The notes under the pieces were generated by a model that did not search any database, was not told where the DNA came from, and worked only from the letters and a program-made list of their open reading frames with translations. This document shows positions 4,792 through 38,299 of a stretch of DNA of 38,582 bases, piece by piece (within the stretch, counting starts at the first letter, position 1; each line of letters opens with the position of its first letter). A program made the translations under genes and the position numbers. This stretch comes from Chthoniobacterales bacterium (GTDB taxonomy: Bacteria > Verrucomicrobiota > Verrucomicrobiia > Chthoniobacterales > JACTMZ01): assembly GCA_037141375.1 (NCBI GenBank), contig JBAXCT010000001.1:1-38582 (forward strand). Direction: 5' to 3'.

Positions 4792-5201
4792 GACGTACCG
4801 CGAGGGAACGCACAGCAAAAACAACTCTCGCACGCTTCATTTCTTGCGATGAAGTTTTTTCGCGGCCCGCTGTCAGGCGTTCCGCGCGTCGATGACCAGC
4901 AACAAGATGTTCGGACTCCCGGTTTATGGACGCGATGGACGCGTCCGCCTCTCCCCTCGCCTTCGCCCGATGTTTAGTCGGACTGGCTTTGCTCCCGCAT
5001 GCGCGGGATAAAGGATTGTTACCGGATACCGCAGCGCAACTGTGGCCGATTCTCACGGCCTTCCCTTGGCTTGCTGGTCGGTCTCACCCGGCTTTCGCCG
5101 GATGCTGGTCATGCAAAAGAACGCAACAACTTATGTAGGCTCCGCCCTCTATTACGTCAATCCCCCTTGCAAAAATTCGCCGCACCGCCATCAATCAACG
5201 C

Positions 5202-8276: not shown

Positions 8277-8279
8277 GCT

Positions 8280-13390: not shown

Positions 13391-13425
13391 GCACTCATCA
13401 CCGTGCGGTGGTCATTGTCGCCCAT

Positions 13426-14970
13426 ATGCAGTTTTTGCACCGCCATTGGGCGCTGTTCTTGGTGGTACTCGTGGCTGCAAATCCTTTGCAGGCCCGCGAG
13501 TTCACCCTGATCTCCTACAATGTTGAAAATCTTTTCGACGCCGACAAAATCGCGATTTTCGACGATTACGCCGAGACAGGCGAGCCAGACTCCTACTCGC
13601 CGGCCAAGATGCTGCGCAAGATGCAGTCCATCGGCAAAGTTCTGAAATCATTCAACCACGGGGACGGTCCTGAGATCGCATGCTTGAATGAACTGGAGTT
13701 GGACTTCACTCCAGACTCGAAAGTGACCGACTACGACGCATTCCTCAAAAAATACAAAAACACCACGGCGGAAAAGATGCTCACATCGGAGTTGAGCGAC
13801 GAAATCCGCGGCTTGCCTGCCGAAGCGTTGCTCCTGAAGCACCTCGATGATCAAGGCATGAAAGGCTACCATGTGGCGGTCGGAATGGATGAGCCGGACT
13901 TTGCCGCTTTGGCCAGCACGGAGCGTGGCGTTCACAAAAAGGGACAGAAGAACGGGATTTTCAGCAAATTTCCGATCACCGCGACCCGCAGCCACCCGAC
14001 CTCTGAGGCCCGAGATATTCTTGAGGCCACGCTCGACGTGGATGGCCATCCGCTCACGGTGTTCGTCAATCATTGGAAGTCCGGTGCCGGCAGCCTCCAG
14101 TCGGAGCAATCCCGCCGCTTCAATGCAAAAACTTTACGAGATCGTCTCGAGGAAATTTTCGCGAAGAACCCGGCGGCGGATGTGGTCTTGGCGGGCGACT
14201 TCAATAGCCAATACAAACAATCTTTGGCCTACCCTCATATGGGTAAGACTGGGCTCAATGATATCTTGGGCTCCCAAGGTGACGAGAAGGCCACGGCCGA
14301 CGCGACCAACCTAAGCCTCTACAACCTCTGGCACGAAGTTCCTGAATCTGAAAGGCACTCAGATTACTACGACGGGAAATGGGGTACACTCATGCAGTTG
14401 ATGGTCACTCCGGGCCTCTACGACGACAACGGGGTGCAGTATGTGGACAATTCCTTCCAGGTCGTGGCTTTGGACGGCGTGAATACGGTGACCCACGCCA
14501 AACTACCGCATCGTTGGAGCAATGCCGGACGAGGATCAGGGGCAAGCGATCACTTCCCGATCAGCATGTGCCTTCGCACCGTGGATGAGAAAGACAGCAC
14601 GAAGCGCGAGGAAGTTAGCCATCCGGGGGTTCCGGCCAAGAGCGGAGATTTGCTGCCCGTTTTCGCGGCCCTCAAGCCGGTTGACTGCCCTGAATTCACG
14701 CCGGCCATCGGGAAAAGCACTTCCGAGCATATGGGCGAAATATTCCATGTTACGGGTGCGGTTGCTTCCGTGAGGCCGCTGGTCATCAGCGTGCACGGAG
14801 CGGAATACTCCCTATGGACGAGCGATAAAGAATCACCCGCTTTGCAGCCCGTGCGCAAGATGGCCAGAGGATCCAAAATCGATATCCTCGGAATGCTCTC
14901 TGTCTACAAGGGAAAGCCCCAGTTTCTCGTCGAGGATCCTTCTTGGGTGATTAACCTAACGGGCAAGTGA
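13426..14970 (+). CDS. secreted endonuclease/exonuclease/phosphatase (EEP) family protein with a C-terminal OB-like domain
   Basis: I prefer the ATG at 13426 over the GTG at 13408 because it gives the signal peptide MQFLHRHWALFLVVLVAANPLQA|RE. EEP hallmarks are LISYNVENLFD near the N-terminus, NHWKSG, and SDHFPI near the end of the catalytic domain. The last ~100 aa (HVTGAVASV...YKGKPQFLVEDP) look like a small beta-barrel. Confidence 0.8.
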   Translation: MQFLHRHWALFLVVLVAANPLQAREFTLISYNVENLFDADKIAIFDDYAETGEPDSYSPAKMLRKMQSIGKVLKSFNHGDGPEIACLNELELDFTPDSKVTDYDAFLKKYKNTTAEKMLTSELSDEIRGLPAEALLLKHLDDQGMKGYHVAVGMDEPDFAALASTERGVHKKGQKNGIFSKFPITATRSHPTSEARDILEATLDVDGHPLTVFVNHWKSGAGSLQSEQSRRFNAKTLRDRLEEIFAKNPAADVVLAGDFNSQYKQSLAYPHMGKTGLNDILGSQGDEKATADATNLSLYNLWHEVPESERHSDYYDGKWGTLMQLMVTPGLYDDNGVQYVDNSFQVVALDGVNTVTHAKLPHRWSNAGRGSGASDHFPISMCLRTVDEKDSTKREEVSHPGVPAKSGDLLPVFAALKPVDCPEFTPAIGKSTSEHMGEIFHVTGAVASVRPLVISVHGAEYSLWTSDKESPALQPVRKMARGSKIDILGMLSVYKGKPQFLVEDPSWVINLTGK

Positions 14971-24313: not shown

Positions 24314-25705
24314 ATGATCTCCCGAAAGCAGGAACTCTCACTGCAGATAAACCAAGTCGCGGATGGGCTGCTGCTCATCCTCTCCCTTTACATCGGCTAT
24401 GCGCTGCGTCGCTACCAGATCATAGACTTCGACATTCTTCCGGCGATTCCTCCCATAGAGGATTTTTTCTGGATGTTTCTTGTCATCGGTTTATTCGGGC
24501 CCCTTCTCCTCGAGATGCAGGGATTCTACCAGTATCCATTGGAAAAGTCTCTGGCCCGGTCATTCCGTCAAATCGCCTACGCAGGCGTCTGGCTGGGTTT
24601 GCTGCTTGGTGCGTGCGTTGTCTTTCTAAGACTGGGCATTCCCAGTCGCTCCGCCTTCCTTTTGTTCATCGCGATTGCACCAATGTGCCTCCTGCTGCGT
24701 GAGGCCGTATACCGCGACAATTATCTTCGATCCTTGCGAGGGGGGGCGCAGGGAGAAACGGTCATTCTGGCCGGCGTCCATGACAGCATGGACCAGTTGC
24801 TCTCTTCGCTTTCGCCTGTGCAGAGACTTGAGATAGATGTGGTGGCAAGAATTGACCTCCTCTGCCAAGACGTGCAAGACTTGGTTGCGGTGATTCACCA
24901 GCACAATGTAGGTCGCGTCATTTTCGCTTTCGGTGCGCAGTCCCCCGCAAACCTGCAAACGGCGATCGCCGCATGCGAAACAGAGGGCATCGAAGCATGG
25001 ATCGCCGCAAATTTCGTCCGTACTTCTATTGCACGACCGGCTTACGACACGCTTGGCCCGATACCCATGCTGGTCCTGCGCGTCACGCCGGAGTTGTCGT
25101 GGGCAATACTTCTCAAAGCAATCATGGATCGTGTCGGATCGTTTTTCGGGCTGCTATTGCTTACGCCATTGTTTGTACTCGTCGCGCTGTCAATCAAGAT
25201 CACATCGCCCGGCCCTGTCATTTTCAAGCAAAGGCGGGCCGGGCGATACGGAAAACCCTTCACTATGTACAAGTTTCGCTCCATGCGGTTGGGCGCGGAA
25301 ACCGAGAAGGACGCCTTGCGAGAACTCAACGAAATGAGCGGGCCCGTTTTCAAAGTCGCAGGCGATCCGCGAGTCACTCCGCTCGGCCGCTGGCTTCGCC
25401 GCACAAGCATCGACGAGTTTCCCCAATTGCTCAACGTCCTGCTCGGGCAGATGAGTCTGGTGGGGCCACGCCCCCTCCCCCTCTATGAGGTCAATAATTT
25501 TGAACTCACGGCCCATCGTCGACGCCTCAGCATGAAACCCGGATTGACCTGCCTATGGCAAATTAGAGGGCGCAATACAGTCAAGGATTTCAATGATTGG
25601 GTGAAGCTGGATGTAGAGTATATCGACAACTGGTCTCTTGCTTTGGACTTGCGAATTCTCCTGCGGACCCTGCCGGCGGTTCTCCTCGGCCAAGGCGCGA
25701 GGTGA
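24314..25705 (+). CDS. polyprenyl-phosphate glycosyl-1-phosphate transferase (WbaP/WcaJ-like bacterial sugar transferase)
   Basis: 463 aa. N-terminal TM helices are followed by a central Rossmann-like region and a C-terminal sugar-transferase domain (ITSPGPVIFKQRRAGRYGKPFTMYKFRSM, DEFPQLLNVLLGQMSLVGPRP). Confidence 0.88.
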   Translation: MISRKQELSLQINQVADGLLLILSLYIGYALRRYQIIDFDILPAIPPIEDFFWMFLVIGLFGPLLLEMQGFYQYPLEKSLARSFRQIAYAGVWLGLLLGACVVFLRLGIPSRSAFLLFIAIAPMCLLLREAVYRDNYLRSLRGGAQGETVILAGVHDSMDQLLSSLSPVQRLEIDVVARIDLLCQDVQDLVAVIHQHNVGRVIFAFGAQSPANLQTAIAACETEGIEAWIAANFVRTSIARPAYDTLGPIPMLVLRVTPELSWAILLKAIMDRVGSFFGLLLLTPLFVLVALSIKITSPGPVIFKQRRAGRYGKPFTMYKFRSMRLGAETEKDALRELNEMSGPVFKVAGDPRVTPLGRWLRRTSIDEFPQLLNVLLGQMSLVGPRPLPLYEVNNFELTAHRRRLSMKPGLTCLWQIRGRNTVKDFNDWVKLDVEYIDNWSLALDLRILLRTLPAVLLGQGAR

Positions 25706-25983
25706 TCGTCATTTGTGACAACGAAGAGCAGGCGCATTTATTCTTGGCAACCACCCCTCCGCCTTCGGCCCCGGACAGGCTTGCGAGGAGGTCAAAATCT
25801 CTGCCCCCGCTTCCGCGTCTTGCGCTCCGGACGGCTTTCAGCTTCCCCGTACTTGGTGGCTGCGCGCATCGGGCCGCTGGAAAGCTTGATTGCCGCTACG
25901 GCTAATCTGCGTGAAATTGCCAGCAAATAATTTGCGCAACGGACCAGAGACGCATTGCATCCGGCGGGGAAATTGTCTACTCT

Positions 25984-26012
25984 TTGACTGTCGATGGGCT
26001 GCGCTTTCTACT
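25984..26012 (+). promoter_or_regulatory. candidate sigma70-type promoter for the pilus-like cluster
   Basis: TTGACT at 25984-25989, a 17-nt spacer, then TCTACT at 26007-26012. The site is about 135 nt upstream of the ATG at 26149. This is a motif match only and I did not survey other candidates exhaustively. Confidence 0.15.
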
Positions 26013-26148
26013 GCCTCGAACTTCTCACCGCAAGCGGAGGTTAGGCTTGGGATCAGCGGCTTCTCCTCGGTCATGACAAAACAAATGCCATCAAAAAACT
26101 TTGGCGGTTGATCCAAGGCCAGCCGTTCACAATTCTCATCCCACCAAT

Positions 26149-26766
26149 ATGAACAAAACGTTAATCGCCCTTGCTCTCCTCGCGACAGCACTTGCAGTCC
26201 AGGCTCAGCAGTTGAACACCGATTTCAAAATAACAAAAATTACTCCAGATCTTGTCACGACCGCCGATTACACTTTCAGCTACGGCCCCAAGAATAAAAA
26301 AGTCGCGAAGAACAAGGAATTTCTTGAGGTGGAGGTGTCTTTCGATTGGCAGCCAAAAGCCCAAGATCCAGCTTACTTGGATGACCTCACGATCAACTAC
26401 TACGTACTTCTCAGCAATAAGAGCAAAGAGTATCCTAAGGGAGCGCTTCTAATCGGTTCCGTAACCCACAGCGCCATTCCTCAGGGGAAAGACATGCACT
26501 CTGTCGTGTATGTCAGTCCGCGCACTTTAGAGCGTTTTTTTGACGGCAAGGCCCCCACCTCTGCGGCGACTGCTGTTGTGGATGTTGGTGTGACGATCAC
26601 CAAGCAGGGTGCGACGGTTGCCGAAGGAAGTTGGAAGGGTCGGGGTCAGTGGTGGACCGCTCTCCCTCAGGTGCCTGGCTACGTTCTTAACAAAAACCAA
26701 ACGCCATTCGCCCCGCTGGCTTGGGATTACTACGAGGCGATCAAATCCGGACCAGCCGGGATGTAA
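26149..26766 (+). CDS. secreted protein of unknown function, first gene of the pilus-like cluster (Amuc_1102 position)
   Basis: Track ORF (TTG at 26101) trimmed to the ATG at 26149, giving the signal peptide MNKTLIALALLATALAVQA|QQ and 205 aa. It is beta-rich and Lys-rich. I recognised no family from sequence; the assignment rests on synteny. Confidence 0.7.
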   Translation: MNKTLIALALLATALAVQAQQLNTDFKITKITPDLVTTADYTFSYGPKNKKVAKNKEFLEVEVSFDWQPKAQDPAYLDDLTINYYVLLSNKSKEYPKGALLIGSVTHSAIPQGKDMHSVVYVSPRTLERFFDGKAPTSAATAVVDVGVTITKQGATVAEGSWKGRGQWWTALPQVPGYVLNKNQTPFAPLAWDYYEAIKSGPAGM

Positions 26767-26796
26767 CCGCATCCTCCTCGGACATCCTCTGCTATC

Positions 26797-28602
26797 ATGC
26801 CCAAGTCCTCCCGCATTGTTGCCGTCAACCTCGGTATGCAGACCGTCACCATGGCGGTCTTTGATGCTCCAGGCGGCGCGCTCCGTCTTTCCTCTTTTGC
26901 GGAGGCTGACCTCGTCCCCGATCCGTCCGCTGACAGCAGCAGAGCGGGTCAAATCAAAATCGCCGTCGCCGAGTTGCGTGCGAAGCTGGGATGGAGTAGT
27001 GGCCCGGCCGGCTGCGCGATACCCTCGCAGGGCGTCTTCGCCCGATTCGTCAAGATTCCCCTTGTCGAGTCCGACAAGGTTGGCCCGATGCTTTACTTCG
27101 AGGCGCAGCAGAATGTTCCCTACCCGATCGAAGAAGTGTCTTGGGGGTACCAAGTGCTGCCAGAAGCGGAATCCGACAAACTTGGCGCGCTGATCATCGC
27201 CACCAAACTCGACCAGTTGGAATCGACTGTTGAGGCTTTGACGGGAGCCGGAGTTTCGCCAGAGCTGATCGACACATCCACCACGGCAATCTATAATGCT
27301 TTGCGCTACAATTACCCAGATCTCCACGGTTGCACTCTGCTGATCGACATAGGTGCGCGCGCCACAAACCTTCTTTTTGTCGAGGGCGATCGGCTGTTTA
27401 TCCGCACTTTGCCGGTCGGTGGAAACTCCATCACAGCGGCTCTGCAGCGCAAATTTGATAGTCATTCGCTCTCCGAGCTTGAACAACTGAAGAAGCAGAA
27501 GGGGTTCATTCCTCAGCCCGGCGACCACCATGGCGAACACAGTGAGGAGGCGGAGGAGATCGGCAAAATTGCGAGGACGGTCATGACGCGCATCCACAAC
27601 GAGATCACCCGTTCCATCACTTTCTATCGGACCAATCAGCTCGGCTCAGGACCTGTGCGTGCGCTTTTGGCCGGAGGAGGAGCATCTCTTCCGTACGCCT
27701 TGGAATTTTTCAATGAAAAGCTCTCTCTCCCTATTGAGTTTTTCAACGCCTTGCGCCGCGTTTCGCTTTCGCCGACCGTCCAGGAATCCGAGATCCGCGG
27801 GGCCGCGCACCGTTTAGGTGAGTGCGTGGGTCTGGCCTCCCGACTTCTCTTAGGCGACGCCGCGCCTCTCCAAATCGAGCTAAAATCCAAAACCCTTGAG
27901 GCCGCAGCGCTCGATCGAAAGCGGCGTCCGTTCTTGGTTGCGGCATCGGTGGTCCTCGTTGGATCGCTCTGCTCGCTTGCCCTTTACTTCAGCCACGCGG
28001 CTGATCGTGCCCAGATCGCGAGCGACCAGATTGACTCACGACTAAACGCCTTGCGCGGGTTCAAGCAGGAACTTGACACTACGGCCAAGCAGCAGTCCGA
28101 TGCTTTGCAAGTTTCTGCAGATTTGGTCGCCGCCCCCATGCTGCGGGTGGCATGGGCTGACCTCATAAGCGAGATCAACAAGGTCATGCCCGAAAAAGAT
28201 ATCTGGGTCACCAAGCTTCGCCCTATGATCGGCGATGCGGTCATCGAGCCCGGAGACAAAGGGAGTTCAGGGGCGCCTGGCGATCCTGCAGGTGGGGATG
28301 CTGCCGAGCGCCGTGGTCAGTCAGGTGCGGCTTCTCCTGCGGTCACCGCCTTGGTCTTGGAAGGTCTGTACTTGGAAGAGGCTGATGGCGGGCCTGCCAT
28401 TGTCGATCGTTTTTGCGAAGCCCTCAGCAAATCTTCGCGATTCGCCATAAAGCCCGACACCATCGCCTCCGGCCGGCGTCTCGGTGATCCTCACGATGAC
28501 CGCCCGCTGCAGGTGCTGCAGGAACGTGCCACGCCGAGCGGAGACGCTTGGGCTTATACCTACAAACTTGTTGTGCCATTAGCCCGCCCCATACCTCTCT
28601 AA
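26797..28602 (+). CDS. PilM-like actin-fold ATPase domain fused to a TM helix and a PilN-like periplasmic domain
   Basis: 601 aa. PilM/FtsA-like blocks are IVAVNLGMQTVTMAVF, LLIDIGARATNLLFVEGDRLFIRTLPVGGNSIT and ALLAGGGASLP. The TM helix is at about res 378-399 (nt 27928-27993). A coiled segment follows, then the PilN-like motif INKVMPEKDIWVTKLRP. Confidence 0.85.
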   Translation: MPKSSRIVAVNLGMQTVTMAVFDAPGGALRLSSFAEADLVPDPSADSSRAGQIKIAVAELRAKLGWSSGPAGCAIPSQGVFARFVKIPLVESDKVGPMLYFEAQQNVPYPIEEVSWGYQVLPEAESDKLGALIIATKLDQLESTVEALTGAGVSPELIDTSTTAIYNALRYNYPDLHGCTLLIDIGARATNLLFVEGDRLFIRTLPVGGNSITAALQRKFDSHSLSELEQLKKQKGFIPQPGDHHGEHSEEAEEIGKIARTVMTRIHNEITRSITFYRTNQLGSGPVRALLAGGGASLPYALEFFNEKLSLPIEFFNALRRVSLSPTVQESEIRGAAHRLGECVGLASRLLLGDAAPLQIELKSKTLEAAALDRKRRPFLVAASVVLVGSLCSLALYFSHAADRAQIASDQIDSRLNALRGFKQELDTTAKQQSDALQVSADLVAAPMLRVAWADLISEINKVMPEKDIWVTKLRPMIGDAVIEPGDKGSSGAPGDPAGGDAAERRGQSGAASPAVTALVLEGLYLEEADGGPAIVDRFCEALSKSSRFAIKPDTIASGRRLGDPHDDRPLQVLQERATPSGDAWAYTYKLVVPLARPIPL

Positions 28603-29487
28603 ATGGACTCGCTCAAAAAAAATCCTTTCCTAGCCGGCTTGATCGTAGCGGTTGCCGTCTCCATCGCGGCGTCGGGATATTGGACCTACTCCGCCTTCAG
28701 CCGCTTTGCCGAGCAGCAACAATCGCTCGACGGCAAGCGAGGCGAAATCGAAAGCTTGCAGGCCAGCAAGCCATTCCCCGACCAAAACAACGTGCAAGCA
28801 GCCAAAGCAGAACTCAAGCGGGCGGAGGAAATACTTGCAGAAAACCGGAAGGCATTCGCTGTCGTTGCGCCATCTATCTCTCCCCAAGCCTTTCAAGATG
28901 ATCTGCGGGGAAAGGTAAGCGACATCATCAAGCGGGCCCAAGCGAACGGCGTTATGCTGGCGCAGTCTTTTTATCTGGGCTTTGAGGTATTCGAAAAACA
29001 ACCGCCCGCCGTCGAGGAAGCTCCGTCGCTTGCCGTGGAACTTGAGTCCATTTATGCGGCGGTTGGCAAGTTGGTCGATGCGAGAGTAAAATCCATTGTT
29101 TTGGTGGCACGCGAAGTCCCGGGGCAAGCGCAGCAGACGCCGGAAGGTCAGACGGAGAAGCCCGCGCACAAAGGGAAAAACCAATCCGAGCAGACAACTT
29201 TTGCCTTGCGCGCTTTCAGCCTTACGTTCACCTCGGACCAAGCTTCGTTCAAAAACGCCTTGAACAGCATCGTGTCTGCCAAGCCACCGATTTTTGTAAG
29301 GTTGGTTGCCATTACGAACTCAACTCTTAGTGGACCACCTAAGAGTGGCGAGGCAGTTGCAACGGAGCAGTCTCCCGCCGCAGAAGCAAGTGCGGAGGAG
29401 GGCAAGATCAAACCGGTTCTCGGCAGGGAACTTCTGACCATCAACCTCCATTTGGCTGCCGCCTCACCCCAAAAAACCGCACAATGA
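28603..29487 (+). CDS. Amuc_1100-like membrane-anchored coiled-coil protein (PilO position)
   Basis: The ATG immediately follows the upstream TAA. It has an N-terminal TM (FLAGLIVAVAVSIAASGYW) and a coiled coil. Blocks SPQAFQDDLR, FYLGFEVF, LAVELESIYAAVGKLV, FSLTFTSDQASFKNALNSI and IKPVLGRELLTINLHL are collinear with my recalled Akkermansia Amuc_1100 sequence. Confidence 0.75.
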   Translation: MDSLKKNPFLAGLIVAVAVSIAASGYWTYSAFSRFAEQQQSLDGKRGEIESLQASKPFPDQNNVQAAKAELKRAEEILAENRKAFAVVAPSISPQAFQDDLRGKVSDIIKRAQANGVMLAQSFYLGFEVFEKQPPAVEEAPSLAVELESIYAAVGKLVDARVKSIVLVAREVPGQAQQTPEGQTEKPAHKGKNQSEQTTFALRAFSLTFTSDQASFKNALNSIVSAKPPIFVRLVAITNSTLSGPPKSGEAVATEQSPAAEASAEEGKIKPVLGRELLTINLHLAAASPQKTAQ

Positions 29488-30518
29488 AAGATCTCAAGCA
29501 AAGATATGAGAAATTGCTGGCCATCGCGGCAGGGCTTGCCGCCCTTGGTGTCACGGCCTACGTCCTGATGGGTGCAGCTGATCTTTCGACGAGCATGCAA
29601 GAACCCCCAGTCGTCGCTAGCGGGGAAGCTTTTGCCCCAAGTGCGGAACTAAAAAGACTGCAGGACGATACCGAATCGATGGGCGGTTCAGTTGGGTGGT
29701 CTGATGGCAAAGCGTCACCCTTTGTCAGCCGCATCTACCTTTTGCGTGAAGGTCGCCTGGTGGACATTTTGGAGAGCGGCAACGACCTTTTCTCAGGAAT
29801 CCCCAATGCTTGGGTATTGGAGAACAGCTTGGACTACACCGATATGAATTTGCCCAAGAGGGATCCCGATCAAGATGGTTTTACCAATCAGGAAGAGTAC
29901 GGTGGAAAAACTAATCCCAACGACAAGTCTTCCACGCCGCCAATTTGGACCAAGCTGCGGATGACCGACAGCAAAATTGAGCAGCTACAGATCCTCTTCA
30001 CCCGTCCGTCGGAAGATGGTGGGGCATGGATCAACTCCACCTCCGGCGGGCAAGACCTAAAAGGCCAGTCAGAGCTCTACACCTTAGGCAGCGATATTTT
30101 CGTGAACGAGTTTCAGCCAGGCCTGACCAAACCGAAAAAGGAACCCACCGTTTACAAGCTTGTGCGCGTCGACAAGTCCGAACAGCCCATCCCTGGGATA
30201 CCCGGAGCGACTAAGGATGTTTATTCTGCCGTCCTCCGCAATAGCGTGGATGATCGCGAGCTTATCCTTGAGCAGGAGAAGCCGCAGACTTCACCCTACT
30301 CCAAGGCAACAATTACGGACACGAGGCCAGGTGGTAAGGCTTGGGAAGGGCGAGCTGGGCAAAAGTTTCCGTTGGAGGGGGCTGGAGATTTCATGTTGGT
30401 CGATGTATCGCCTGACCAAGCCGTAATCAAAAAGGTCGACTCCAGTGAAAAATTGGAGATACCATTTGAACAGCTTACGAGTCTTTCCGAGCAGACGCAG
30501 GAAACGCCTAAGGAATAA
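29484..30518 (+). CDS. membrane-anchored protein of unknown function with a thrombospondin-type-3-like Asp-rich motif (PilP / Amuc_1099 position)
   Basis: ATGA overlap with the upstream gene at 29484-29487. It has an N-terminal TM (LLAIAAGLAALGVTAYVLMGAA), the motif DPDQDGFTNQEEYGGKTNPND (nt 29862-29924), and a beta-rich C-terminal half. Confidence 0.7.
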   Translation: MKDLKQRYEKLLAIAAGLAALGVTAYVLMGAADLSTSMQEPPVVASGEAFAPSAELKRLQDDTESMGGSVGWSDGKASPFVSRIYLLREGRLVDILESGNDLFSGIPNAWVLENSLDYTDMNLPKRDPDQDGFTNQEEYGGKTNPNDKSSTPPIWTKLRMTDSKIEQLQILFTRPSEDGGAWINSTSGGQDLKGQSELYTLGSDIFVNEFQPGLTKPKKEPTVYKLVRVDKSEQPIPGIPGATKDVYSAVLRNSVDDRELILEQEKPQTSPYSKATITDTRPGGKAWEGRAGQKFPLEGAGDFMLVDVSPDQAVIKKVDSSEKLEIPFEQLTSLSEQTQETPKE

Positions 30519-30541
30519 CATCCGCACCTCCCGTCCAGCAT

Positions 30542-32962
30542 ATGCCACGCACCCACTTACGCTCCCTGTTCCTCCTCTCCTTGCTTCTCAGTTGGCAGGG
30601 AAATATCTTTGCCGGTAGCGACAATGGAGCGCCTCTATCTGCGGTGGAAGCCACGGCAGAATTCGAGATTGCCAAACGCCAAACATTGGCCGACGACTAC
30701 GCGCCGCAGGCCGTCCAGAAGGGCACCGCGGCCTTGGCGGAGCGTGACTACGAGACCGCGTACGCCCAGTACAAAGCGGCCGTCGATGCCTTGCCCGACG
30801 CCCCCAGCGTTCGGGAACTAAGAACGGTTGCCTTAGACGGCTTTTCCAAGGCCGTCATGGGGTTGGCCGAGCAGCGAATCGCCGAAGGTCGCTGGGCGGA
30901 TGCCAAGTCGCCCGTTGAGGTCCTGCTCCAGCCACAATACAACCCCAACTACAAGCCCGCCCAGCGCCTGCTCGCGCGCCTCGAGGCGCCAGACTATTTC
31001 AACACAACAGTAACCCCCGGCTTCGTCAGCAAGGTTGAACTGGTCAAAAAATTGCTCGTCGAAGCTCAGGGACTCTACGACTCAGGGCGATATGAAGACG
31101 CGCTCAAAAAATACGAGGAGGTGCTGCAGAATGACAGGTACAACATCGCCGCACGCCGAGGTATGGAGCAGGTCAACCTTTCGCGTATGCGCGTATCCGA
31201 TGCAGCCTACAATGATGCCCGGGCAGGAATGATCACGGATGTTGACAAGGGATGGGAGTTGCCAGTTCGCAGGCGCGATGGGGGGCCTTCCTCCGTGATT
31301 GAGCAGCCTGTCCTCTCAGCAAAGGGGACACGGTCCATCAACCGCAAGCTCGACGAAATCATTATTCCGAGACTCCAATTCACCGATGCCACAGTTCGCG
31401 AGGCGATCGAATATCTCCGCACCCAAACGGTAAAACTGGATACGGGGGCCATCGACGAGGGGGACAAAGGTGTCAACATCGTGCTGAAACTAGACCCATC
31501 GGCAGCCTCCCAGACTATTACGATTGATCTCGCTGGCCTGCCCTTGCGCGAGGCATTGGATTATATAACGCGCTTGGCCAATCTTAAGACCAAGGTGGAA
31601 CCTTACGCCGTGCTCATCGTTCCGATTACAGAGCCCACAGATACCTTGATCACCAAGGAATATCGTGTGCCACCAGGTTTTATCACCGCCCTGCCATCCG
31701 GTGGCGCCGGCCAGGCTCCGACTGACGGCACCACGGTAGCTGTGAGCAAAGCCAAGGAGTTTCTCGAGTCCCAAGGCGTGCAATTCCCTCCCGGTGCCAG
31801 CGCGAATCTCTTGACCAGCAGCAGCCGGCTTATTGTGCGCAACACCCAAGAGAATCTGGACCTTGTAGATGCCCTGGTCGAGAGCTCGGTCAGTGGCACC
31901 CCATCCCAAGTCGAGATCGAATCTAAATTTGTCGAAGTCTCGCAGGATAATCTCAAGGAACTCGGCTTTGACTGGCTGCTGGGTCAGTTCGCTTTTCCTG
32001 GGGGATCGGGTGTTTATGGTGGTGGTGGAACCAGCGGCAACCAATTCAACGCGGCGAGCCCACAATCTGGGCAGACCTATTTTCCCCTCAACTATCCGGG
32101 GACGCAGGTTCCTGTTGGAGTTAATCCCATTACCGGAGGCAACCGCAGCGGAGGAACGGCGATCACCGCAAACGCGCTCGACGGTCTCCTCTTGGGTAGC
32201 CCGGCAGCCGTGCCGACCGCGGGAGTCCTTGCCTTGGCAGGTATATTCACCAATCCGCAGTTTCAAGTGGTCTTGCGCGCCTTAAACCAAAAAAAAGGAA
32301 TCGACGTGCTTTCGGCTCCAAAAGTGACGACAAAAAGCGGATCTTCTGCCAAGGTGGAAATCGTCCGAGAATTTCGTTACCCTCAGGAATACGATCCGCC
32401 GCAAATTCCCCAGACGACTGGCAGCGGAACTCAGCCTGTCACCCCGGCAACCCCGACGTCGTTCCAGATGAAGCCAATCGGGGTGACCCTAGAGGTCGAG
32501 CCTACCGTTGGCTCTGACAACTACACCATCGACCTGCGACTGCTGCCTAACGTGACGGAATTCGAGGGTTTTATAAACTACGGCTCGCCGATCCTAAATC
32601 AAGGTGTTGTCGTGACGCCAAACATCATCAATTACCCCGTTTTTAGCCAACGCAAAGTAGAGACCTCAGTTAGCGTCTATGATGGGGCGACCGTAGCCTT
32701 AGGAGGACTGATTCGAGAGGATGTGCAAAAAGTTACCGATAAAACCCCTCTCTTGGGTGATATCCCCTTGGCTGGCGTGCTCTTTCGCTCGCAGGCCGAC
32801 AAGCATACCAAGCGTAATCTCATGATTTTTGTCACCGCCAAGTTGATGGATCCTGCCGGCCAGCCTTTGGCTAATGCTACAGTCCTAGAAGAAGTGGGTC
32901 AGAGCACGGAGACCGCAGTTCCCGATGTCATGCCCCCTCCGGTCGAACCACCTCTCCCCTGA
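30542..32962 (+). CDS. secretin (type II/III secretion system protein family, PilQ/GspD-like) with N-terminal TPR-like region, copy 1
   Basis: 806 aa. The signal peptide ends at ...NIFA|GS and is followed by a helical-repeat region of about 210 aa. An N0/STN-like domain (IIIPRLQFTDATVREAIEYL...LPLREALDYI) and an N1 domain (LIVRNTQENLDLVDALV) come next. The secretin core contains QVEIESKFVEVSQ, PQFQVVLRALNQKKG, APKVTTKSG, GDIPLAGVLFRS and NLMIFVTAKL. Confidence 0.9.
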   Translation: MPRTHLRSLFLLSLLLSWQGNIFAGSDNGAPLSAVEATAEFEIAKRQTLADDYAPQAVQKGTAALAERDYETAYAQYKAAVDALPDAPSVRELRTVALDGFSKAVMGLAEQRIAEGRWADAKSPVEVLLQPQYNPNYKPAQRLLARLEAPDYFNTTVTPGFVSKVELVKKLLVEAQGLYDSGRYEDALKKYEEVLQNDRYNIAARRGMEQVNLSRMRVSDAAYNDARAGMITDVDKGWELPVRRRDGGPSSVIEQPVLSAKGTRSINRKLDEIIIPRLQFTDATVREAIEYLRTQTVKLDTGAIDEGDKGVNIVLKLDPSAASQTITIDLAGLPLREALDYITRLANLKTKVEPYAVLIVPITEPTDTLITKEYRVPPGFITALPSGGAGQAPTDGTTVAVSKAKEFLESQGVQFPPGASANLLTSSSRLIVRNTQENLDLVDALVESSVSGTPSQVEIESKFVEVSQDNLKELGFDWLLGQFAFPGGSGVYGGGGTSGNQFNAASPQSGQTYFPLNYPGTQVPVGVNPITGGNRSGGTAITANALDGLLLGSPAAVPTAGVLALAGIFTNPQFQVVLRALNQKKGIDVLSAPKVTTKSGSSAKVEIVREFRYPQEYDPPQIPQTTGSGTQPVTPATPTSFQMKPIGVTLEVEPTVGSDNYTIDLRLLPNVTEFEGFINYGSPILNQGVVVTPNIINYPVFSQRKVETSVSVYDGATVALGGLIREDVQKVTDKTPLLGDIPLAGVLFRSQADKHTKRNLMIFVTAKLMDPAGQPLANATVLEEVGQSTETAVPDVMPPPVEPPLP

Positions 32963-32969
32963 CACCTCC

Positions 32970-35564
32970 ATGATAAAGCTTTTTTGCACGCTCGTCCTCG
33001 CCCTCTCATTCCATTCGGCGACGCTCTTTGCGGGCACCGGCGCAGGCGACGGAGCGGCTTCCATCCTTGAGACCGCTGGCGATCGTGAGATCAGCCGACG
33101 CCAAGAGAATCTGGTTGTGGCCGAAGAGGCATTGAAGAGCGGCGATGCGGCTCTGCAGCGCAACGACCTTGCCTCCGCCTACGAACAATACAAACGTGCC
33201 GTGGAACTTGTTCCGCAAGGATCCGAAACGGCTGGGCTACATGGCCGAGCAGTTTCCCGCTTTTCCTCCACCGCAGTTCGCTACGCAGAATACCTTGTGA
33301 GTCAGGGCGACTATGCCAAGGCCGAGTCGGTGGCCCGCGGGGTGCTTGAGCCCGCCTATAATCCGGATTACCGCCCGGCGGCCGTGTTCCTCAGTCGTCT
33401 GGAACAGCCGGATTATTTCAACAAGACGATCACACCATCATTTGCACAAGAACGCGAAGAGGTGAGTCAACTTCTCGGCGATGCCAACGGATTCTATGAT
33501 TCCGGACGCTACGACATGGCCCAAAAACGCTATCAACAAGCTCTAGCTCTGGATAAGGACAACGCCGCAGCTTATCGGGGCCTTGAGCAAGTCGAAGTCG
33601 GCAAGCAGCGCTACTACGAATCAGCTTACAATGAGACACGCTCGCGTATGCTTTGGCAGGTGGAAAAAGCATGGGCGCGGCCCAAACAAGTATACAACGA
33701 CTCGCGTGTCACCGATGGAGCAAACTCCGAGCAAGACAGGCGTGGCACCGAGTTGATGATCGCAAGACTCAACCAGATCATCGTTCCGTCCGTAAACTTT
33801 CAAGATGCAACGATTCAAGATGCCATGGCCTTCCTTCGCCAAAAAAGCCGGGAACTGGGTGATACCGACCAGAACAGCCGGGGCATCAACATTCTCCTGA
33901 AACTTCCATCGGGATCTGCAGCCCTGCGCGCCACTGGCGACCCTGCTTCAGATCAGGGATCTGCTCCGTCTGCGTTCAATGATCGAATAACGCTGCATCT
34001 AAGCAACGTACCGCTTTACGAGGTACTTCGATACATCGCCACACTCTCGGGCCTTAAAGTAAAAGTAGAGCCATTTGCCGTTTCGGTTGTGCCCCTCTCG
34101 GAAGTCACCGAAACCTTGGCGGTCAGAGAGTTCAAGGTGCCCCCTGGTTTTATCACGGCAGGGGCTACAGGGGGTGCTGATGCGACGGGACCGCAGGCTG
34201 GCTCGGCTGGCGCGGATGCAAACACAGCAAAGCTCGCAAACCGGCAAACCGCAAAGGACTTCCTTGAATCACAAGGTGTACAATTCCCGGTCGGAGCTAG
34301 CGCGCGCTTTATTCCCGGAAGCAGTAAACTTGTTGTCCGGAACACCGCCGACAACCTCGACCTGATCGAATCCCTCGTCGACGCGGCCATGGGTGATCAG
34401 CCAACCCAAGTGGAAATCGAAGCCAAGTTTGTGGAAGTTTCGCAGAACAACCTCAAGGAGCTTGGCTTCGATTGGAGGCTGGGACCTTTTGCTATCGGTG
34501 ACTCCGGCGTCTACGGAGCGGGCGGAGATGCGGGCAATGCGGCAGCGGTGCCGTTCATTAACCCCGGGACTGGTGGCGCGATCGGGGGCAGTTCAGTAAC
34601 GAGTGGACTCCGCTCTGGCAACTCCGCCATTTCTGCGAACAGTCTGGGCGCACTGCTCGGGCAGGGACTTGGCGGTGCGGGTCCGTCACCGGCCATCTTC
34701 TCGATCGCCGGCATCTTCACCAATCCGCAATTTCAAGTGGTGATTCGCGCGCTCAACCAGAAAAAAGGCGTCGATTTGATGGCCGCCCCGAAAGTGACGA
34801 CCAAAAGCGGACAGAAAGCCACGATCACGATCAGTCGCGAGTTTCCCTACCCGCAACAATACGAACCGCCCCAAATCCCGCAGGACAGCTCTGGCGGGAA
34901 CGTCGTCAATGGTAATGCGGGTGGGAACACAGCGGACCCCGTGGTTACACCCAGCTTCCCAACAGACTTCACGACGCGCGACTTGGGAGTTACCCTTGAA
35001 GTGGAACCGCAAATAGGGCCCGATGGATACACAATCGATCTCACTCTCTCTCCTGAAGTTGTCGACTTCGATGGGTTCATCAACTACGGATCCCCTATTT
35101 CTGTGCCAAGTCGGACTTTTTTAGGGCAACAAGTAGCACGCGATGCCAATGACTTAATCCTCGGAGTTTTCGACGTCTTCACTCCAACAACCCCGCGAAT
35201 CTTGACCGAAAACGTCATCAACCAACCTATCTTCAGCAAACGCAAAGTAACAACCAATGTCAGCATCTGGGACGGTCAGACCGTAGTTCTTGGGGGACTC
35301 ATTCGGGAGGATGTGCAAAAGGTCAGCGATAAGGTGCCGATTTTGGGAGACATCCCGCTGGCCGGAACCCTGTTCCGCTCCCAAGTGGACCAAAAGATCA
35401 AGCGAAACTTGATCATTTTCACCACCGCACGATTGATGGATGCTGCAGGGCAACTTTTGAGGCCCCAAGATGATTCGGATCAGGAGGAAATCGTGGATCC
35501 TGTCGGCCTACCCAAGGACCTTTCCAAACCTTCGCTAAATCCCAAGAGCTTCAGCAGAAAATAG
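32970..35564 (+). CDS. secretin with N-terminal TPR-like region, copy 2 (paralogue of copy 1)
   Basis: Track ORF trimmed to the ATG at 32970 (MIKLFCTLVLALSFHSATLFA|GT), 864 aa. It has the same domain order as copy 1. Matching blocks are YNPDYRPA, LEQPDYFNKTITP, YDSGRY, AKDFLESQGVQFP, QVEIEAKFVEVSQNNLKELGFDW, PQFQVVIRALNQKKG, APKVTTKSG, GDIPLAGTLFRS and NLIIFTTARL. Confidence 0.9.
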   Translation: MIKLFCTLVLALSFHSATLFAGTGAGDGAASILETAGDREISRRQENLVVAEEALKSGDAALQRNDLASAYEQYKRAVELVPQGSETAGLHGRAVSRFSSTAVRYAEYLVSQGDYAKAESVARGVLEPAYNPDYRPAAVFLSRLEQPDYFNKTITPSFAQEREEVSQLLGDANGFYDSGRYDMAQKRYQQALALDKDNAAAYRGLEQVEVGKQRYYESAYNETRSRMLWQVEKAWARPKQVYNDSRVTDGANSEQDRRGTELMIARLNQIIVPSVNFQDATIQDAMAFLRQKSRELGDTDQNSRGINILLKLPSGSAALRATGDPASDQGSAPSAFNDRITLHLSNVPLYEVLRYIATLSGLKVKVEPFAVSVVPLSEVTETLAVREFKVPPGFITAGATGGADATGPQAGSAGADANTAKLANRQTAKDFLESQGVQFPVGASARFIPGSSKLVVRNTADNLDLIESLVDAAMGDQPTQVEIEAKFVEVSQNNLKELGFDWRLGPFAIGDSGVYGAGGDAGNAAAVPFINPGTGGAIGGSSVTSGLRSGNSAISANSLGALLGQGLGGAGPSPAIFSIAGIFTNPQFQVVIRALNQKKGVDLMAAPKVTTKSGQKATITISREFPYPQQYEPPQIPQDSSGGNVVNGNAGGNTADPVVTPSFPTDFTTRDLGVTLEVEPQIGPDGYTIDLTLSPEVVDFDGFINYGSPISVPSRTFLGQQVARDANDLILGVFDVFTPTTPRILTENVINQPIFSKRKVTTNVSIWDGQTVVLGGLIREDVQKVSDKVPILGDIPLAGTLFRSQVDQKIKRNLIIFTTARLMDAAGQLLRPQDDSDQEEIVDPVGLPKDLSKPSLNPKSFSRK

Positions 35565-35630
35565 CGACAGCGTGGAGGCGGGAAACTCCGAATGCTGCAC
35601 CTCTGTGGGGTGAGACATCCTTCAAACGTT

Positions 35631-36221
35631 ATGACCATCGGCCTGACCGGGGGTATTGCCTGCGGAAAATCCACCTTCGTTCGGGCTCTGTCCGCTTGCC
35701 ATGGATTTGAACATTTCTCGGCTGACGAGTGCGTGCATCAATTGCTTGCCTCTGATCCTTGCCTCATCAAGGCGGTATCTGACGCCTTCGGCCCGGAGGT
35801 CATAGATGCCGGCGGTCACGTGAACCGCCCGGCCCTCCGCGGCATTGTGTTCGTTGATGCGGTCGCCCGCCGCAAGTTGGAGGCGATCCTTCACCCTGTG
35901 GTCCGTGGACGATGGCAGACCCAACTCCAAAATTGCCACGCCTCGGGCAGACATTTTCTCGCCGATATTCCCCTGCTTTTCGAAACCGGGTCCGAGCGCT
36001 CCTTTGGGCAGATTGTGGTCGTCGCCGCCTCCACGCAGGTCCAGAGGGCCAGACTGGCCACCAGAGGGCTGCAATCAGCCATAGCTGAGGCTATGCTTGC
36101 CAGCCAAGCTCCCATCAGGCAAAAGATAGACCAAGCCAGCATCGTGGTATGGAACGATGGCAATGAGTCCTCGCTCCACCGTCAGGCTTCGCTTGCCGCC
36201 GAATTGCTTTTCGCAACCTGA
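35631..36221 (+). CDS. coaE: dephospho-CoA kinase
   Basis: Track ORF trimmed to the ATG at 35631 (MTIGLTGGIACGKST, a P-loop at the canonical N-terminal position). DIPLLFE and ILHP blocks are present; 196 aa. Confidence 0.9.
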   Translation: MTIGLTGGIACGKSTFVRALSACHGFEHFSADECVHQLLASDPCLIKAVSDAFGPEVIDAGGHVNRPALRGIVFVDAVARRKLEAILHPVVRGRWQTQLQNCHASGRHFLADIPLLFETGSERSFGQIVVVAASTQVQRARLATRGLQSAIAEAMLASQAPIRQKIDQASIVVWNDGNESSLHRQASLAAELLFAT

Positions 36222-36223
36222 GC

Positions 36224-37558
36224 ATGTCAGCTTCAGCCATCACAGACTCTAAAACTGCACCCTTTGCTGCCGCTTTCCCGGCTACGGTTGAGGAGTTAAA
36301 CGGTTTTTGCCTCTCGATAAACGGCCTGCAAGCGCTCGGCCATTCGGAGTTGTCAGACCTGCTGCAGAAATACCAGCTCCGGGTGCGGCCCGATGGGACC
36401 AAGCGCTATCTAATTTTCGACCTTTGCCGGTTCTTGTTGGCGTCTGGGGCGATTATTTCGGCGGAAGGCATGATCGAGGACCTCGGAGATCACTCAATGG
36501 TCCGATGGCCCTGCTGGAACTTTGCGCCCGGTCCCGATGACCTTTTTGTTTCGATCAGTTTCGTCCGGGAGTTCGGACTCCAAACAGGCCTGAAAATCAC
36601 GGGCACCTTGCGCCCCCCCGGGGAACGTGACCGCTACTGCGGGCTCGCGTCCATTTCCATGATCGAGGGAATACCCTCAGAGGAGTGGCAACCGGTTACC
36701 CCCTTCGACAAGCTCACTCCGTTGTTTCCGCAAGAGAGAATTCTGCTCGAGGCGGTTAAACAGCCCTCTCTCAGCGCCCGCGCGGTGGATCTGATCGCCC
36801 CGCTGGGAAAAGGACAACGCGCACTCATTGTAGCCCCGCCTCGCACCGGAAAAACGATCCTCATGCGCGACATCGCCAAAGCCATTCGCTCTACCTCGCC
36901 GTCCGTAAAGTTGATCCTTCTCCTTGTCGATGAACGCCCGGAAGAGGTCACTGATCTGCGTCGCTCGATCGATGCGGACATCTACAGTTCGACTTTCGAC
37001 GAGTCTCCTGAGCGACACACCCAGCTGGCGGAATTTGTCAGCGAACGAGCCAAACGTCTTGTCGAACTTGGCCACGATGTGGTCATTCTTCTCGACAGCA
37101 TCACGCGTTTGGCTCGCGGCTACAACAATCTGGAACCCGGTAAAGGGCGCATCATGTCCGGGGGCGTGGATGCCAAGGCCCTCATGAAGCCGAAAAGATT
37201 CTTCGGGGCAGCCCGAAATACAGAGGAGGGAGGCAGCTTGACAATCGTTGCCACCGCTCTGGTCGAGACGCAGAGCAGGATGGATGACTTGATCTTCGAG
37301 GAATTCAAGGGCACCGGCAACATGGAGGTGCACCTCGATCGGACCATCGCCGACACGCGAGTCTTTCCCGCAATCCATGTCACCAAATCCGCCACCCGGC
37401 GCGAAGAGAACCTTTATCATCCGGACGAATTGGCGAGGATCATCGTTTTGCGCAAGCAACTGAACGAGCTGCCTGCCGTCGAGGCCATGGAGGTTCTCCT
37501 GCGGAATCTCGAGAAAACAAAGACCAATGCTGAGCTGCTGCTGCGCGGTCTGCGATGA
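36224..37558 (+). CDS. rho: transcription termination factor Rho
   Basis: 444 aa. Walker A is [11 protein letters not shown]. Other Rho blocks are [26 protein letters not shown] and [25 protein letters not shown]. It starts 2 nt after the coaE stop. Confidence 0.96.
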
Positions 37559-37561
37559 GAC

Positions 37562-38299
37562 ATGACCGCCGACATCCACGCGCAAGACCTCGTCGCAGCC
37601 GATCTGGGTACGCACATGAATCCGCTCGAGCGGCGGATCGGCTACAAGTTCCGCAACTCCCTGCTCTTGGCGGAAGCGCTCACCCACCCCAGCCTGTCCT
37701 TTGAGCGCAAAACATTCCACTTTGATAACCAGCGACTGGAGTTTCTTGGCGATGCGGTTCTGCAACTTGTCGTGACCCATCACCTTTACCGCCTGTTTCC
37801 AACCTTCAATGAAGGACAAATGACCAAGCTGCGATCCCGCTTGGTCTCACGAGAGGGCCTGAAGCAACATGCAACTCGTATCGGCCTTGGCGACTATCTC
37901 ATGCTCGGCCGTGGAGAGGATTCCTCCGCTGGGCGGGAGCGGGCTTCGACACTCGCCGATGCCTTTGAGGCCTTGGTTGGTGCGATCTACCTCGACAGCG
38001 ATCTTGAAACCGTACGGCGGTTCGTGCTCCGCGTTGCGGGCGACGAGTTGACCGCCCTTCGCAAGGAACCCGCCGAACACAACCCCAAAGGCGAGCTGCA
38101 GGAGATTCTCCAGGCCATCTCGCCCCGCAGTGTTATTTACGAGGTTGTCTCGGAAACTGGTCCCGACCACCACAAGGAATTTGTCAGCCGGGCAATGTGG
38201 GAAAATAAGGAGATTGGCCGCGGCTGCGGACAAAGCAAAAAGCAAGCGGAGATCAATGCAGCGGCCGAAGCCCTGTTCGGGCGGCGGTGGCAGTCCTGA
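37562..38299 (+). CDS. rnc: ribonuclease III
   Basis: The RNase III signature is NQRLEFLGDAVL, with a dsRBD at the C-terminus (KGELQEILQ...GQSKKQAEINAAAEAL). An alternative start at 37616 (MNPLERRIGYKF...) gives the more canonical length. Confidence 0.92.
   Translation: MTADIHAQDLVAADLGTHMNPLERRIGYKFRNSLLLAEALTHPSLSFERKTFHFDNQRLEFLGDAVLQLVVTHHLYRLFPTFNEGQMTKLRSRLVSREGLKQHATRIGLGDYLMLGRGEDSSAGRERASTLADAFEALVGAIYLDSDLETVRRFVLRVAGDELTALRKEPAEHNPKGELQEILQAISPRSVIYEVVSETGPDHHKEFVSRAMWENKEIGRGCGQSKKQAEINAAAEALFGRRWQS

Follow-up and report, generated by a model that had tools for sequence, protein, structure and literature searches.

Described relatives of the cluster

The gene cluster Amuc_1098-1102 of Akkermansia muciniphila was described by Ottman et al. 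and has been termed a type IV pili gene cluster (PMC10688800, PMC4960237). It defines the MUL2 locus, in which Mul2A is Amuc_1102 and Mul2B is Amuc_1101 (bioRxiv 10.64898/2025.12.30.696933), and it is reported to be important for mucin acquisition in A. muciniphila (Davey 2023, summarised by PMC13174399 and the same preprint). Here we analyze a 38,582-nucleotide (nt) stretch of DNA (the window) from contig JBAXCT010000001.1 of a freshwater Chthoniobacterales metagenome-assembled genome (MAG; GenBank assembly GCA_037141375.1), in which six consecutive genes form a cluster that, as judged from their sequences, is almost certainly of the Amuc_1098-1102 type. One structural feature goes beyond the described Akkermansia cluster, namely a tandem pair of secretins; the absence of linked motor genes, in turn, is a feature of the whole family.

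Several properties of the Akkermansia cluster and its relatives bear on this comparison. Amuc_1098, a secretin of the outer membrane, begins with a TPR part that was proposed to act as a built-in pilotin-like module (PMC4960237). Amuc_1100 is described as structurally PilO/PilN-like, with reference to the structure papers (bioRxiv 10.64898/2025.12.30.696933). The synteny of MUL2 is conserved in aquatic Akkermansiaceae and frequent in other Verrucomicrobiales families, while the locus is 'less conserved' in Chthoniobacterales and undetected in Methylacidiphilales (PMC13174399, 2026 ISME J). The same study names as its flanks a secretion-system channel protein, dephospho-CoA kinase, Rho and 3-dehydroquinate dehydratase, as found here, and mentions 'secretion system channel proteins' near the locus without commenting on a duplication; it also showed that fluorescently labelled fucoidan built up inside marine Akkermansiaceae cells (PMC13174399). 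Additionally, A. muciniphila encodes more pilus or pseudopilus genes elsewhere (Amuc_1523-24, 1583, 0394 and 0745; bioRxiv 10.64898/2025.12.30.696933), and PilT is encoded by cultivated Verrucomicrobia (PMC7251102).

The cluster type is already known, through curated models, GenBank names, and its published distribution and synteny. Under accessions MEI7863741.1 to MEI7863746.1, GenBank carries these exact proteins for a MAG labelled 'Chthoniobacterales bacterium', with product 1 (MEI7863741.1) named 'Amuc_1102 family pilus-like protein', product 2 'type IV pilus assembly protein PilM', products 3 and 4 'Amuc_1100 family pilus-like protein' and 'Amuc_1099 family pilus-like system protein', while products 5 and 6 are both called 'Amuc_1098 family type IV pilus outer membrane protein'. 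Newer Pfam releases hold PF28178 (Amuc_1102) and PF28028 (Amuc_1100), and a product 3 identical to that of the window occurs on contigs of several metagenome assemblies (ENA, JGI and Logan samples). A preliminary description of the window, made from its letters alone, had stated that what such a machine assembles or transports was not established; the mucin-acquisition report makes this partly out of date. What is added here, the conserved secretin pair, an Amuc_1099 family without a PilP- or GspC-like fold match and motor genes consistently missing from the neighbourhood, consists of refinements of a known question.

Composition of the cluster

Dedicated NCBIfam models account for all six products, and the cluster is collinear with Akkermansiaceae and Luteolibacter loci, which bears out the identity and gene order first proposed for it (Table 1). 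The six open reading frames (ORFs) share one strand with spacings of 30, 0, -4, 23 and 7 nt; these were reproduced in our ORF table, and the ATGA overlap at 29484-29487 was confirmed by direct reading of the sequence.

Table 1. Features of the window discussed in the text, the six cluster genes first.
Feature	Position	Strand	Size	Remarks
Product 1 (Amuc_1102 family)	26149-26766	+	205 aa	from ATG; upstream TTG at 26101 would give 221 aa
Product 2 (Amuc_1101 family)	26797-28602	+	601 aa	
Product 3 (Amuc_1100 family)	28603-29487	+	294 aa	bitopic: N-terminal transmembrane anchor, coiled coil, alpha/beta domain
Product 4 (Amuc_1099 family)	29484-30518	+	344 aa	bitopic: transmembrane helix, calcium-binding-type motif, beta-rich periplasmic domains
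Product 5 (secretin A)	30542-32962	+	806 aa	
Product 6 (secretin B)	32970-35564	+	864 aa	alternative ATG at 32925 would give 879 aa; NCBI start is the ATG at 32970 (MEI7863746.1, 864 aa)
Leader/promoter region	25706-26148	+	443 nt	non-coding, ahead of the cluster
Sugar transferase (exopolysaccharide-type polyprenyl glycosylphosphotransferase)	24314-25705			precedes the leader; TIGR03025, 367.6 bits
coaE-rho-rnc	35592-38299	+		Pfam CoaE; Rho_RNA_bind and ATP-synt_ab; Ribonuclease_3
coaE	35592-36221	+		
Unlinked prepilin-type protein	3143-3904	-		Pfam N_methyl (PF07963) 1.9e-5; N-terminus KSAVTLVELLVVIAV
Putative secreted protein	3901-4833	-	310 aa	probable internal start MKKISAALFAALLLVPLVARA reads as a Sec signal; no family match
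Cobalamin riboswitch, full length	4884-5121	-		RF00174, 54 bits, E 7e-11; upstream of 3901-4833 (-) and 3143-3904 (-)
Mla lipid-transport operon, complete	5478-9056	-		MlaA, C, D, F, E
Endonuclease/exonuclease/phosphatase-family protein	13408-14970	+	520 aa	weak match to extracellular nucleases (ExeM/NucH)

Product 1 is a Sec-exported, immunoglobulin-like (Ig-like) protein of the Amuc_1102 (Mul2A) family. It scores 109.6 bits on the NCBIfam model Amuc_1102_rel (NF042424; cut-off 55) and aligns with the Amuc_1102 crystal sequence (PDB 7DSZ) at E 3.4e-8 in phmmer. Its N-terminus (MNKTLIALALLATALAVQAQQ) reads as a Sec-type signal, not as a class III prepilin signal, in line with the original view of it as a Sec-signal protein of the Amuc_1102 type. 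The Pfam scan returned no family for products 1 and 4.

Product 2 is a member of the Amuc_1101 (Mul2B) family, though divergent: residues 1-600 cover positions 1-606 of the 608 of Amuc_1101_fam (NF045709) with 532 bits (E 2.3e-159), under the equivalog cut-off of 650. It passes the cut-off of TIGR01175 pilM (136.4 bits against 133), and its N-terminal 350 residues match Pfam PilM_2 (PF11104; 92 bits) as well as FtsA, with no other Pfam match. An AlphaFold2 model built with 27 homologues (predicted local distance difference test score, pLDDT, 80.7) contains a PilM fold at residues 1-352, a continuous helix at 365-463, interpreted as a transmembrane part (about 378-400) that runs on into a coiled coil, and a periplasmic alpha/beta domain at 469-600. 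In Foldseek this model retrieves PilM first (5eox, E 8.7e-27; 2ych, the Thermus thermophilus PilM, TM-score 0.88) and then FtsA; the cytoplasmic domain of GspL (4pht_Y) is far weaker, at 1e-9. Many positions across residues 1-350 are invariant among the 27 sequences. The model is thus consistent with a PilM-PilN-type fusion laid out like GspL, where 'PilN-like' refers to topology only. Of the architecture originally given for product 2, the PilM fold and the fusion stand, and the PilN-like part stands as a matter of topology.

Product 3 scores 159.6 bits on Amuc_1100_fam (NF038287), under the cut-off of 180. Its similarity to Amuc_1100 is significant in real alignments: phmmer matches it as a single sequence to the crystal sequence of Amuc_1100 (PDB 6KNY) at E 7.6e-13, and the profile of its family (21 orthologues) does so at E 1.1e-38 over nearly the full length. 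The preliminary description had based this assignment on five sequence blocks matched by eye to Amuc_1100. Four of them are visible in the phmmer alignment and the fifth (IKPYMGKEQVFVQVSLNL) in the family-profile alignment; because all five recur, the likeness seen by eye is true homology. In agreement with this, a precomputed match to Pfam PF28028 (Amuc_1100) is on record for product 3, while our Pfam scan gave a sub-threshold DUF4147 only (E 0.032). A weak match to GspM was also found (NF040576, E 0.019, 14.6 bits against a cut-off of 60). Against the PDB, the family profile retrieved neither PilN nor PilO chains at E <= 10. The C-terminal part of product 2 and the product 3 family were also considered as PilN/PilO-type paralogues of each other; this found no support in the sequences, with hhalign aligning the transmembrane region alone (30% probability).

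Product 4 belongs to the Amuc_1099 family, with residues 4-316 matching positions 1-319 of the 321 of Amuc_1099_fam (NF042425) at 148.3 bits (cut-off 50). Its AlphaFold2 model (48 homologues) has a pLDDT of 83.3, mostly above 90 in the beta-rich region 158-328. Residues 127-138 (DPDQDGFTNQEE) carry a DPDxDGFxNxEE motif in which D127, D129, D131, F133 and E138 are invariant in the 48 homologues, and PF18884 (TSP3_bac, the bacterial thrombospondin type 3 calcium-binding repeat) is recorded on some of them; this motif points to a conserved calcium site in what would be a periplasmic adaptor. A Foldseek search of the model against the PDB, run on the whole multi-domain chain so that a small single domain could escape it, gave nothing under E 0.048. 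Product 4 was considered as a PilP or a GspC by fold, and neither gave a significant match. Therefore, the PilP- or GspC-like role suggested by the position of the gene lacks fold support. The N-terminus is a transmembrane anchor without a visible cysteine, hence no lipobox was seen. Product 4 had been introduced as a transmembrane protein of a PilMNOPQ-like scaffold, of which the anchor holds and the PilP-like role does not find support in the fold.

The tandem secretins

That products 5 and 6 are two secretins, as had been proposed, is borne out by Amuc_1098_fam (NF042912; 831 bits for secretin A and 850 for secretin B, cut-off 750) and by Pfam Secretin (4.7e-35 and 2.1e-33, respectively). 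Both consist of an N-terminal TPR region (TPR_19 at 2e-5 in secretin A, TPR_11 at 6.4e-9 in secretin B) fused to a C-terminal secretin domain, and no AMIN domain model matched either of them in the Pfam scan. On the models of described secretins, A and B score 121 and 129 bits for PilQ (TIGR02515, cut-off 284), 143 and 144 for GspD (TIGR02517, cut-off 351), and 119 and 102 for MshL (TIGR02519, cut-off 250). The two would form an outer-membrane channel or channels, in which the TPR part would serve as the pilotin-like module proposed for Amuc_1098 (PMC4960237).

Secretins A and B are 47% identical to each other over their full length (BLASTP), and their Chthoniobacterales orthologues are 67-79% (A) and 59-69% (B) identical to them. 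All Chthoniobacterales loci that extend over both secretin genes have the tandem as a conserved orthologue pair, whereas Akkermansiaceae and Luteolibacter loci hold a single secretin. In a neighbour-joining tree of 38 secretins, bootstrapping recovers both clade A and clade B as monophyletic in 100/100 replicates, and the branching of one mirrors that of the other; A, B and the soil lineage L035 together split from the single-copy Verrucomicrobiales secretins in 99/100. Because of this topology, the secretin duplication is placed within the Chthoniobacterales lineage as an ancient event, with both copies kept since. The two secretins of a Victivallaceae locus (L046) pair with each other in 100/100 replicates, which suggests an independent duplication there, long-branch attraction being an alternative.

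Comparison with described systems

The likeness to Akkermansia MUL2 extends over five families in the same order on one strand, the TPR-containing secretin, and the aroD, coaE and rho neighbours (PMC13174399). The present cluster differs in that it comes from a freshwater MAG of another order, contains two tandem secretins instead of one, has products 2 and 3 under their equivalog cut-offs, and is followed directly by coaE-rho-rnc on the same strand.

With the PilMNOPQ genes of type IVa pili the cluster shares a PilM actin-like domain, bitopic coiled-coil partners, a C-terminal secretin domain and an operon-like arrangement, so that its proposed resemblance to a PilM/N/O/P/Q-type trans-envelope scaffold is supported. 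It departs from them in the fusion of PilM to a PilN-like part, the extra Sec-exported Ig-like protein, TPR instead of AMIN in the secretins, and the lack of linked pilA and pilBCD. No product matched a PilN, PilO or PilP model at E <= 0.1 (Pfam, NCBIfam). Only the PilM and secretin domains hit standard models, and full-length standard hits for every product were not obtained, in keeping with the initial view that this is not a canonical type IVa pilus.

A likeness to the type II secretion system is seen in product 2, laid out as GspL, in product 3, laid out as GspM, and in secretins scoring on GspD about as on PilQ. In contrast to that system, the scores lie well under the cut-offs, the likeness to PilM exceeds that to GspL, and gspE, gspF and gspG-K are not linked. 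The NCBIfam models of GspL and GspC gave no match, and neither the HR nor the PDZ domain of GspC was matched. As a precedent for the fused layout we take the mannose-sensitive hemagglutinin (MSHA) genes, which presumably comprise MshI as a PilM-PilN fusion, MshJ as PilO-like, MshK as PilP-like, MshL as the secretin and MshN as a TPR protein. Unlike there, the TPR region is fused to the secretin here, and the MshL score is under its cut-off. MSHA loci carry the ATPase, platform and pilins in the same locus.

Conservation in related genomes

A profile search with the alignment of product 2 homologues, restricted to one genome per species, yielded 42 loci, onto which thirteen window genes were mapped by BLASTP. 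In Chthoniobacterales loci long enough for each gene, the upstream order is PBP1, trpD (-), aroD (-) and sugar transferase, and it continues with the homologues of Amuc_1102, 1101, 1100 and 1099, secretin A, secretin B, coaE, rho and rnc. MAGs labelled Akkermansiaceae or Luteolibacter (L037-L047) show aroD (-), the homologues of 1102, 1101, 1100 and 1099, and one secretin; identity of the products to these orthologues is about 20-49%, depending on the protein. Because this order is conserved, the cluster is regarded as vertically inherited, set among housekeeping genes and widespread in these lineages. It belongs to the core genome and encodes a machine of the cell envelope that falls within the type IV filament superfamily.

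Some loci depart from this arrangement. The Victivallaceae locus L046 (9163-19978; MAG JAZRGW010000003.1) has a diverged version of the cluster, with an Amuc_1101_fam match of 350 bits, an Amuc_1099_fam match of 51.6, a weak Amuc_1100 match and two tandem secretins. In the soil Verrucomicrobia MAGs AV79 and AV52 (L035 12135-12812 and its equivalent in L034), a gap of about 700 nt separates the 1100-like and 1099-like genes. In L035 a 225-aa ORF lies in this gap and matches IS200-like Y1_Tnp weakly, below the cut-off (E 7e-4); the secretin of L035 is split across two overlapping ORFs.

Search for a motor, platform, peptidase and pilin

The initial observation that no PilB/PilT, PilC or PilD accompanies the cluster was confirmed with validated probes. 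The PilT probe recovered PDB 3JVU at 1e-225 and also detects GspE, PilB, PilF, DotB, BfpD and FlaI; the PilC/GspF consensus probe recovered Myxococcus xanthus PilC at 1e-57 and EpsF at 1e-26; and the PilD probe matches Peptidase_A24 and A24_N_bact. In phmmer searches at the highest sensitivity, with all six-frame fragments from the window and from 47 loci as targets (750 kb, 43 independent loci spanning Chthoniobacterales, Verrucomicrobiales and Victivallaceae), these probes gave nothing better than E 0.25 for PilT/PilB/GspE, PilC/GspF or PilD. A GspE-type Walker A pattern was likewise unmatched in the window and the loci. The result holds for 10 kb past the right end of the window, covered by contigs with an identical RNase III, and for 10 kb on either side of the 42 loci. 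The former region shows no pilus genes and instead encodes carB, a second Mla set, folA, thyA, a metallo-β-lactamase-fold protein, mscL and an amylase; the remaining window genes have metabolic and envelope housekeeping functions. The Verrucomicrobiales locus L039 has metabolic genes alone around the cluster.

A linked pilin had also been reported as missing. This holds for the surroundings of the cluster and not for the window as a whole, in which a prepilin-type ORF lies at 3143-3904 (-). Its product is a GspG-like prepilin-type protein with a weak match to 'Verru_Chthon cassette protein D'; a pattern scan for pilins was too strict and missed this N_methyl ORF. The ORF is not linked to the cluster, because it lies 22 kb upstream and behind a cobalamin riboswitch, and from its presence the genome is implied to encode a prepilin peptidase.

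Further observations concern pilin-like and related genes. A secreted protein and a pseudopilin-like protein under B12 control, as suggested by the riboswitch upstream of them (Table 1), make an unusual combination that could point to a surface system for scavenging B12. In L035, a pilin-like ORF with a class III signal (…RQGGFTLIELLVVIAIISIL) begins at about 18131 (+), at the contig end, some 1.6 kb downstream of the secretin, and its proximity may be due to chance. Class III-signal pilin-like genes are very numerous in genomes of the Planctomycetes-Verrucomicrobia-Chlamydiae (PVC) group. Candidates for GspE, GspF and GspG, suggested by fitting ORF sizes in a long + strand operon upstream of the L046 homologue, were rejected, since Pfam identified the genes as those of a sigma factor, ABC transporter and RNA methyltransferase together with tpiA.

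Possible function of the machine

The reading we prefer, with roughly even confidence, is that of a pilus or pseudopilus machine with an unlinked motor that serves the capture and uptake of complex glycans. Products 2, 3 and 4 would make up the alignment complex at the inner membrane and in the periplasm, linking the secretins to a cytoplasmic motor, and the conserved PilM domain would dock an unlinked GspE/PilB-type ATPase and a PilC-type platform. Genes for the PilB/GspE-type ATPase, for the PilC/GspF platform, for a prepilin peptidase and for prepilin-type subunits would lie at other sites of the genome, and the subunits would be assembled into a pilus or pseudopilus. In favour of a motor encoded elsewhere are the prepilin-type protein of the window, the pilus and pseudopilus genes at other loci of A. 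muciniphila and the PilT of cultivated Verrucomicrobia. The output would be the capture and uptake of complex glycans, as for MUL2 with mucin, fucoidan having been proposed as the substrate in aquatic Akkermansiaceae (PMC13174399).

Several points weigh against this. The motor, platform and peptidase are found neither within about 48 kb here nor within 10 kb on either side of the 42 loci, and since motor genes are absent near all surveyed loci, the coupling to an unlinked motor is an assumption. Judging by its N-terminus, product 1 cannot be a conventional type IV pilin, since its signal is of the Sec rather than the class III prepilin type. For product 4 the fold search returned neither PilP nor GspC, and neither product 3 nor the C-terminal domain of product 2 shows a sequence-level link to PilO, PilN or GspM. 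No filament is known to cross an Amuc_1098-type secretin. Finally, a role in glycan uptake is carried over from Akkermansia to another order, in which MUL2 is 'less conserved' (PMC13174399).

Alternatively, the cluster could encode an exporter resembling the type II secretion system, with products 2, 3 and 4 and the secretin pair as GspL, GspM, a GspC-type adaptor and GspD. Together with unlinked GspE, GspF and GspO and PVC pseudopilins, it would export glycoside hydrolases or other surface proteins, and the poor growth of MUL2 mutants on mucin would stem from impaired secretion. The PilM-transmembrane-periplasmic layout of GspL and its Foldseek match, the weak GspM match of product 3, the slightly higher secretin scores on GspD than on PilQ and the GspG-like prepilin-type protein of the window agree with such an exporter. 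Yet these scores lie far below their cut-offs (GspD 143 against 351, GspM 14.6 against 60), the PilM match is much better than that to GspL (E 1e-26 against 1e-9, with TIGR01175 above its cut-off), and product 4 has no match to the GspC HR domain. Additionally, gspE, gspF and gspG-K are not linked in any of the 43 loci and the phenotype in the literature is described as a loss of uptake. We consider the exporter unlikely.

A second possibility, somewhat less likely again, dispenses with the motor. The secretins would be large gated outer-membrane channels held by products 2-4 that pass partly degraded glycans to the periplasm without a pilus or ATPase, and product 1 would bind a ligand at the surface or in the periplasm. 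The failure of validated probes to find a motor in any of the 43 loci, the constant setting of the cluster among housekeeping genes and the Sec signal of product 1 speak for such a conduit. However, the retained and highly conserved cytoplasmic PilM domain is hard to explain without a cytoplasmic partner, no secretin system studied so far is known to work without an energized inner-membrane machine, and type IV pilus systems often have their motor genes at a separate site; moreover, the absence of the motor refers to the surroundings of the loci.

A more radical form of the same idea, for which we see a still lower probability, is an autonomous import device: a secretin-based outer-membrane gate for large glycans, working inward and without a type IV filament, whose paired secretins would be co-evolving in Chthoniobacterales and, it seems independently, in Victivallaceae. 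If so, the secretin paralogues could make a mixed ring or two specialized channels on one inner-membrane platform.

Least probable is an ordinary split type IVa pilus, i.e., a pilMNOPQ operon that serves twitching, adhesion or DNA uptake while pilA and pilBCD lie at another site: the PilM domain above the TIGR01175 cut-off, an order M-(N)-O-like-?-Q similar to pilMNOPQ and the name given to the Akkermansia cluster (PMC10688800, PMC4960237) speak for it, but the PilN, PilO and PilP models are unmatched, product 4 has no PilP-like fold match, the secretins reach 121-129 bits against the PilQ cut-off of 284 with TPR N-termini and no AMIN, an Ig-like Sec-exported gene and a second secretin are extra, and the reported phenotype is glycan acquisition, not motility.

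The wide interest in Amuc_1100 and its neighbours stems from the probiotic effects of Akkermansia, and the window shows this cluster in the core genome of Chthoniobacterales that live free in freshwater, never found beside a motor and with a second secretin stably retained. This supports the published view of an ancient glycan-acquisition device of Verrucomicrobiota, as opposed to a gut-specific host-interaction organelle. The paired secretins, the invariant calcium-binding-type motif of the Amuc_1099 family and the conserved PilM fusion offer comparative material for studies of how the complex works.

Flanking genes and further features of the window

The non-coding gap of 443 nt noted ahead of the cluster was left empty by independent gene callers as well. 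It has no Rfam match, and its single weak sigma-70-like site (25715-25744) is not better than chance. In related loci the sugar transferase and the Amuc_1102 homologue lie between about 50 and about 1000 nt apart (longest-ORF calls); because this distance varies so much, the leader is assumed to hold no conserved element.

As stated initially, no recognizable terminator follows the cluster, and none occurs in the 27 nt between 35564 and coaE (35592). Terminator-like sites are not enriched across the region (17 against 15.9 expected from shuffles). The gaps between secretin B, coaE, rho and rnc are 27, 2 and 3 nt, without a terminator-like site, and coaE, rho and rnc are all kept downstream in the Chthoniobacterales loci that reach that far. 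As same-strand neighbours they may be cotranscribed with the envelope cluster; since the gaps are tiny, a terminator-like site is absent and the order is conserved, shared transcription of essential housekeeping genes and the cluster is possible. Functionally, coaE-rho-rnc is outside the machine.

Two further features of the window and its continuation lie apart from the cluster. The complete Mla lipid-transport operon (Table 1) is accompanied by a second MlaE/ABC ATPase/MlaD set past the right end (L048 9880-12242 / L049 6086-8448), and the 520-aa protein of the endonuclease/exonuclease/phosphatase family weakly resembles the extracellular nucleases ExeM/NucH.

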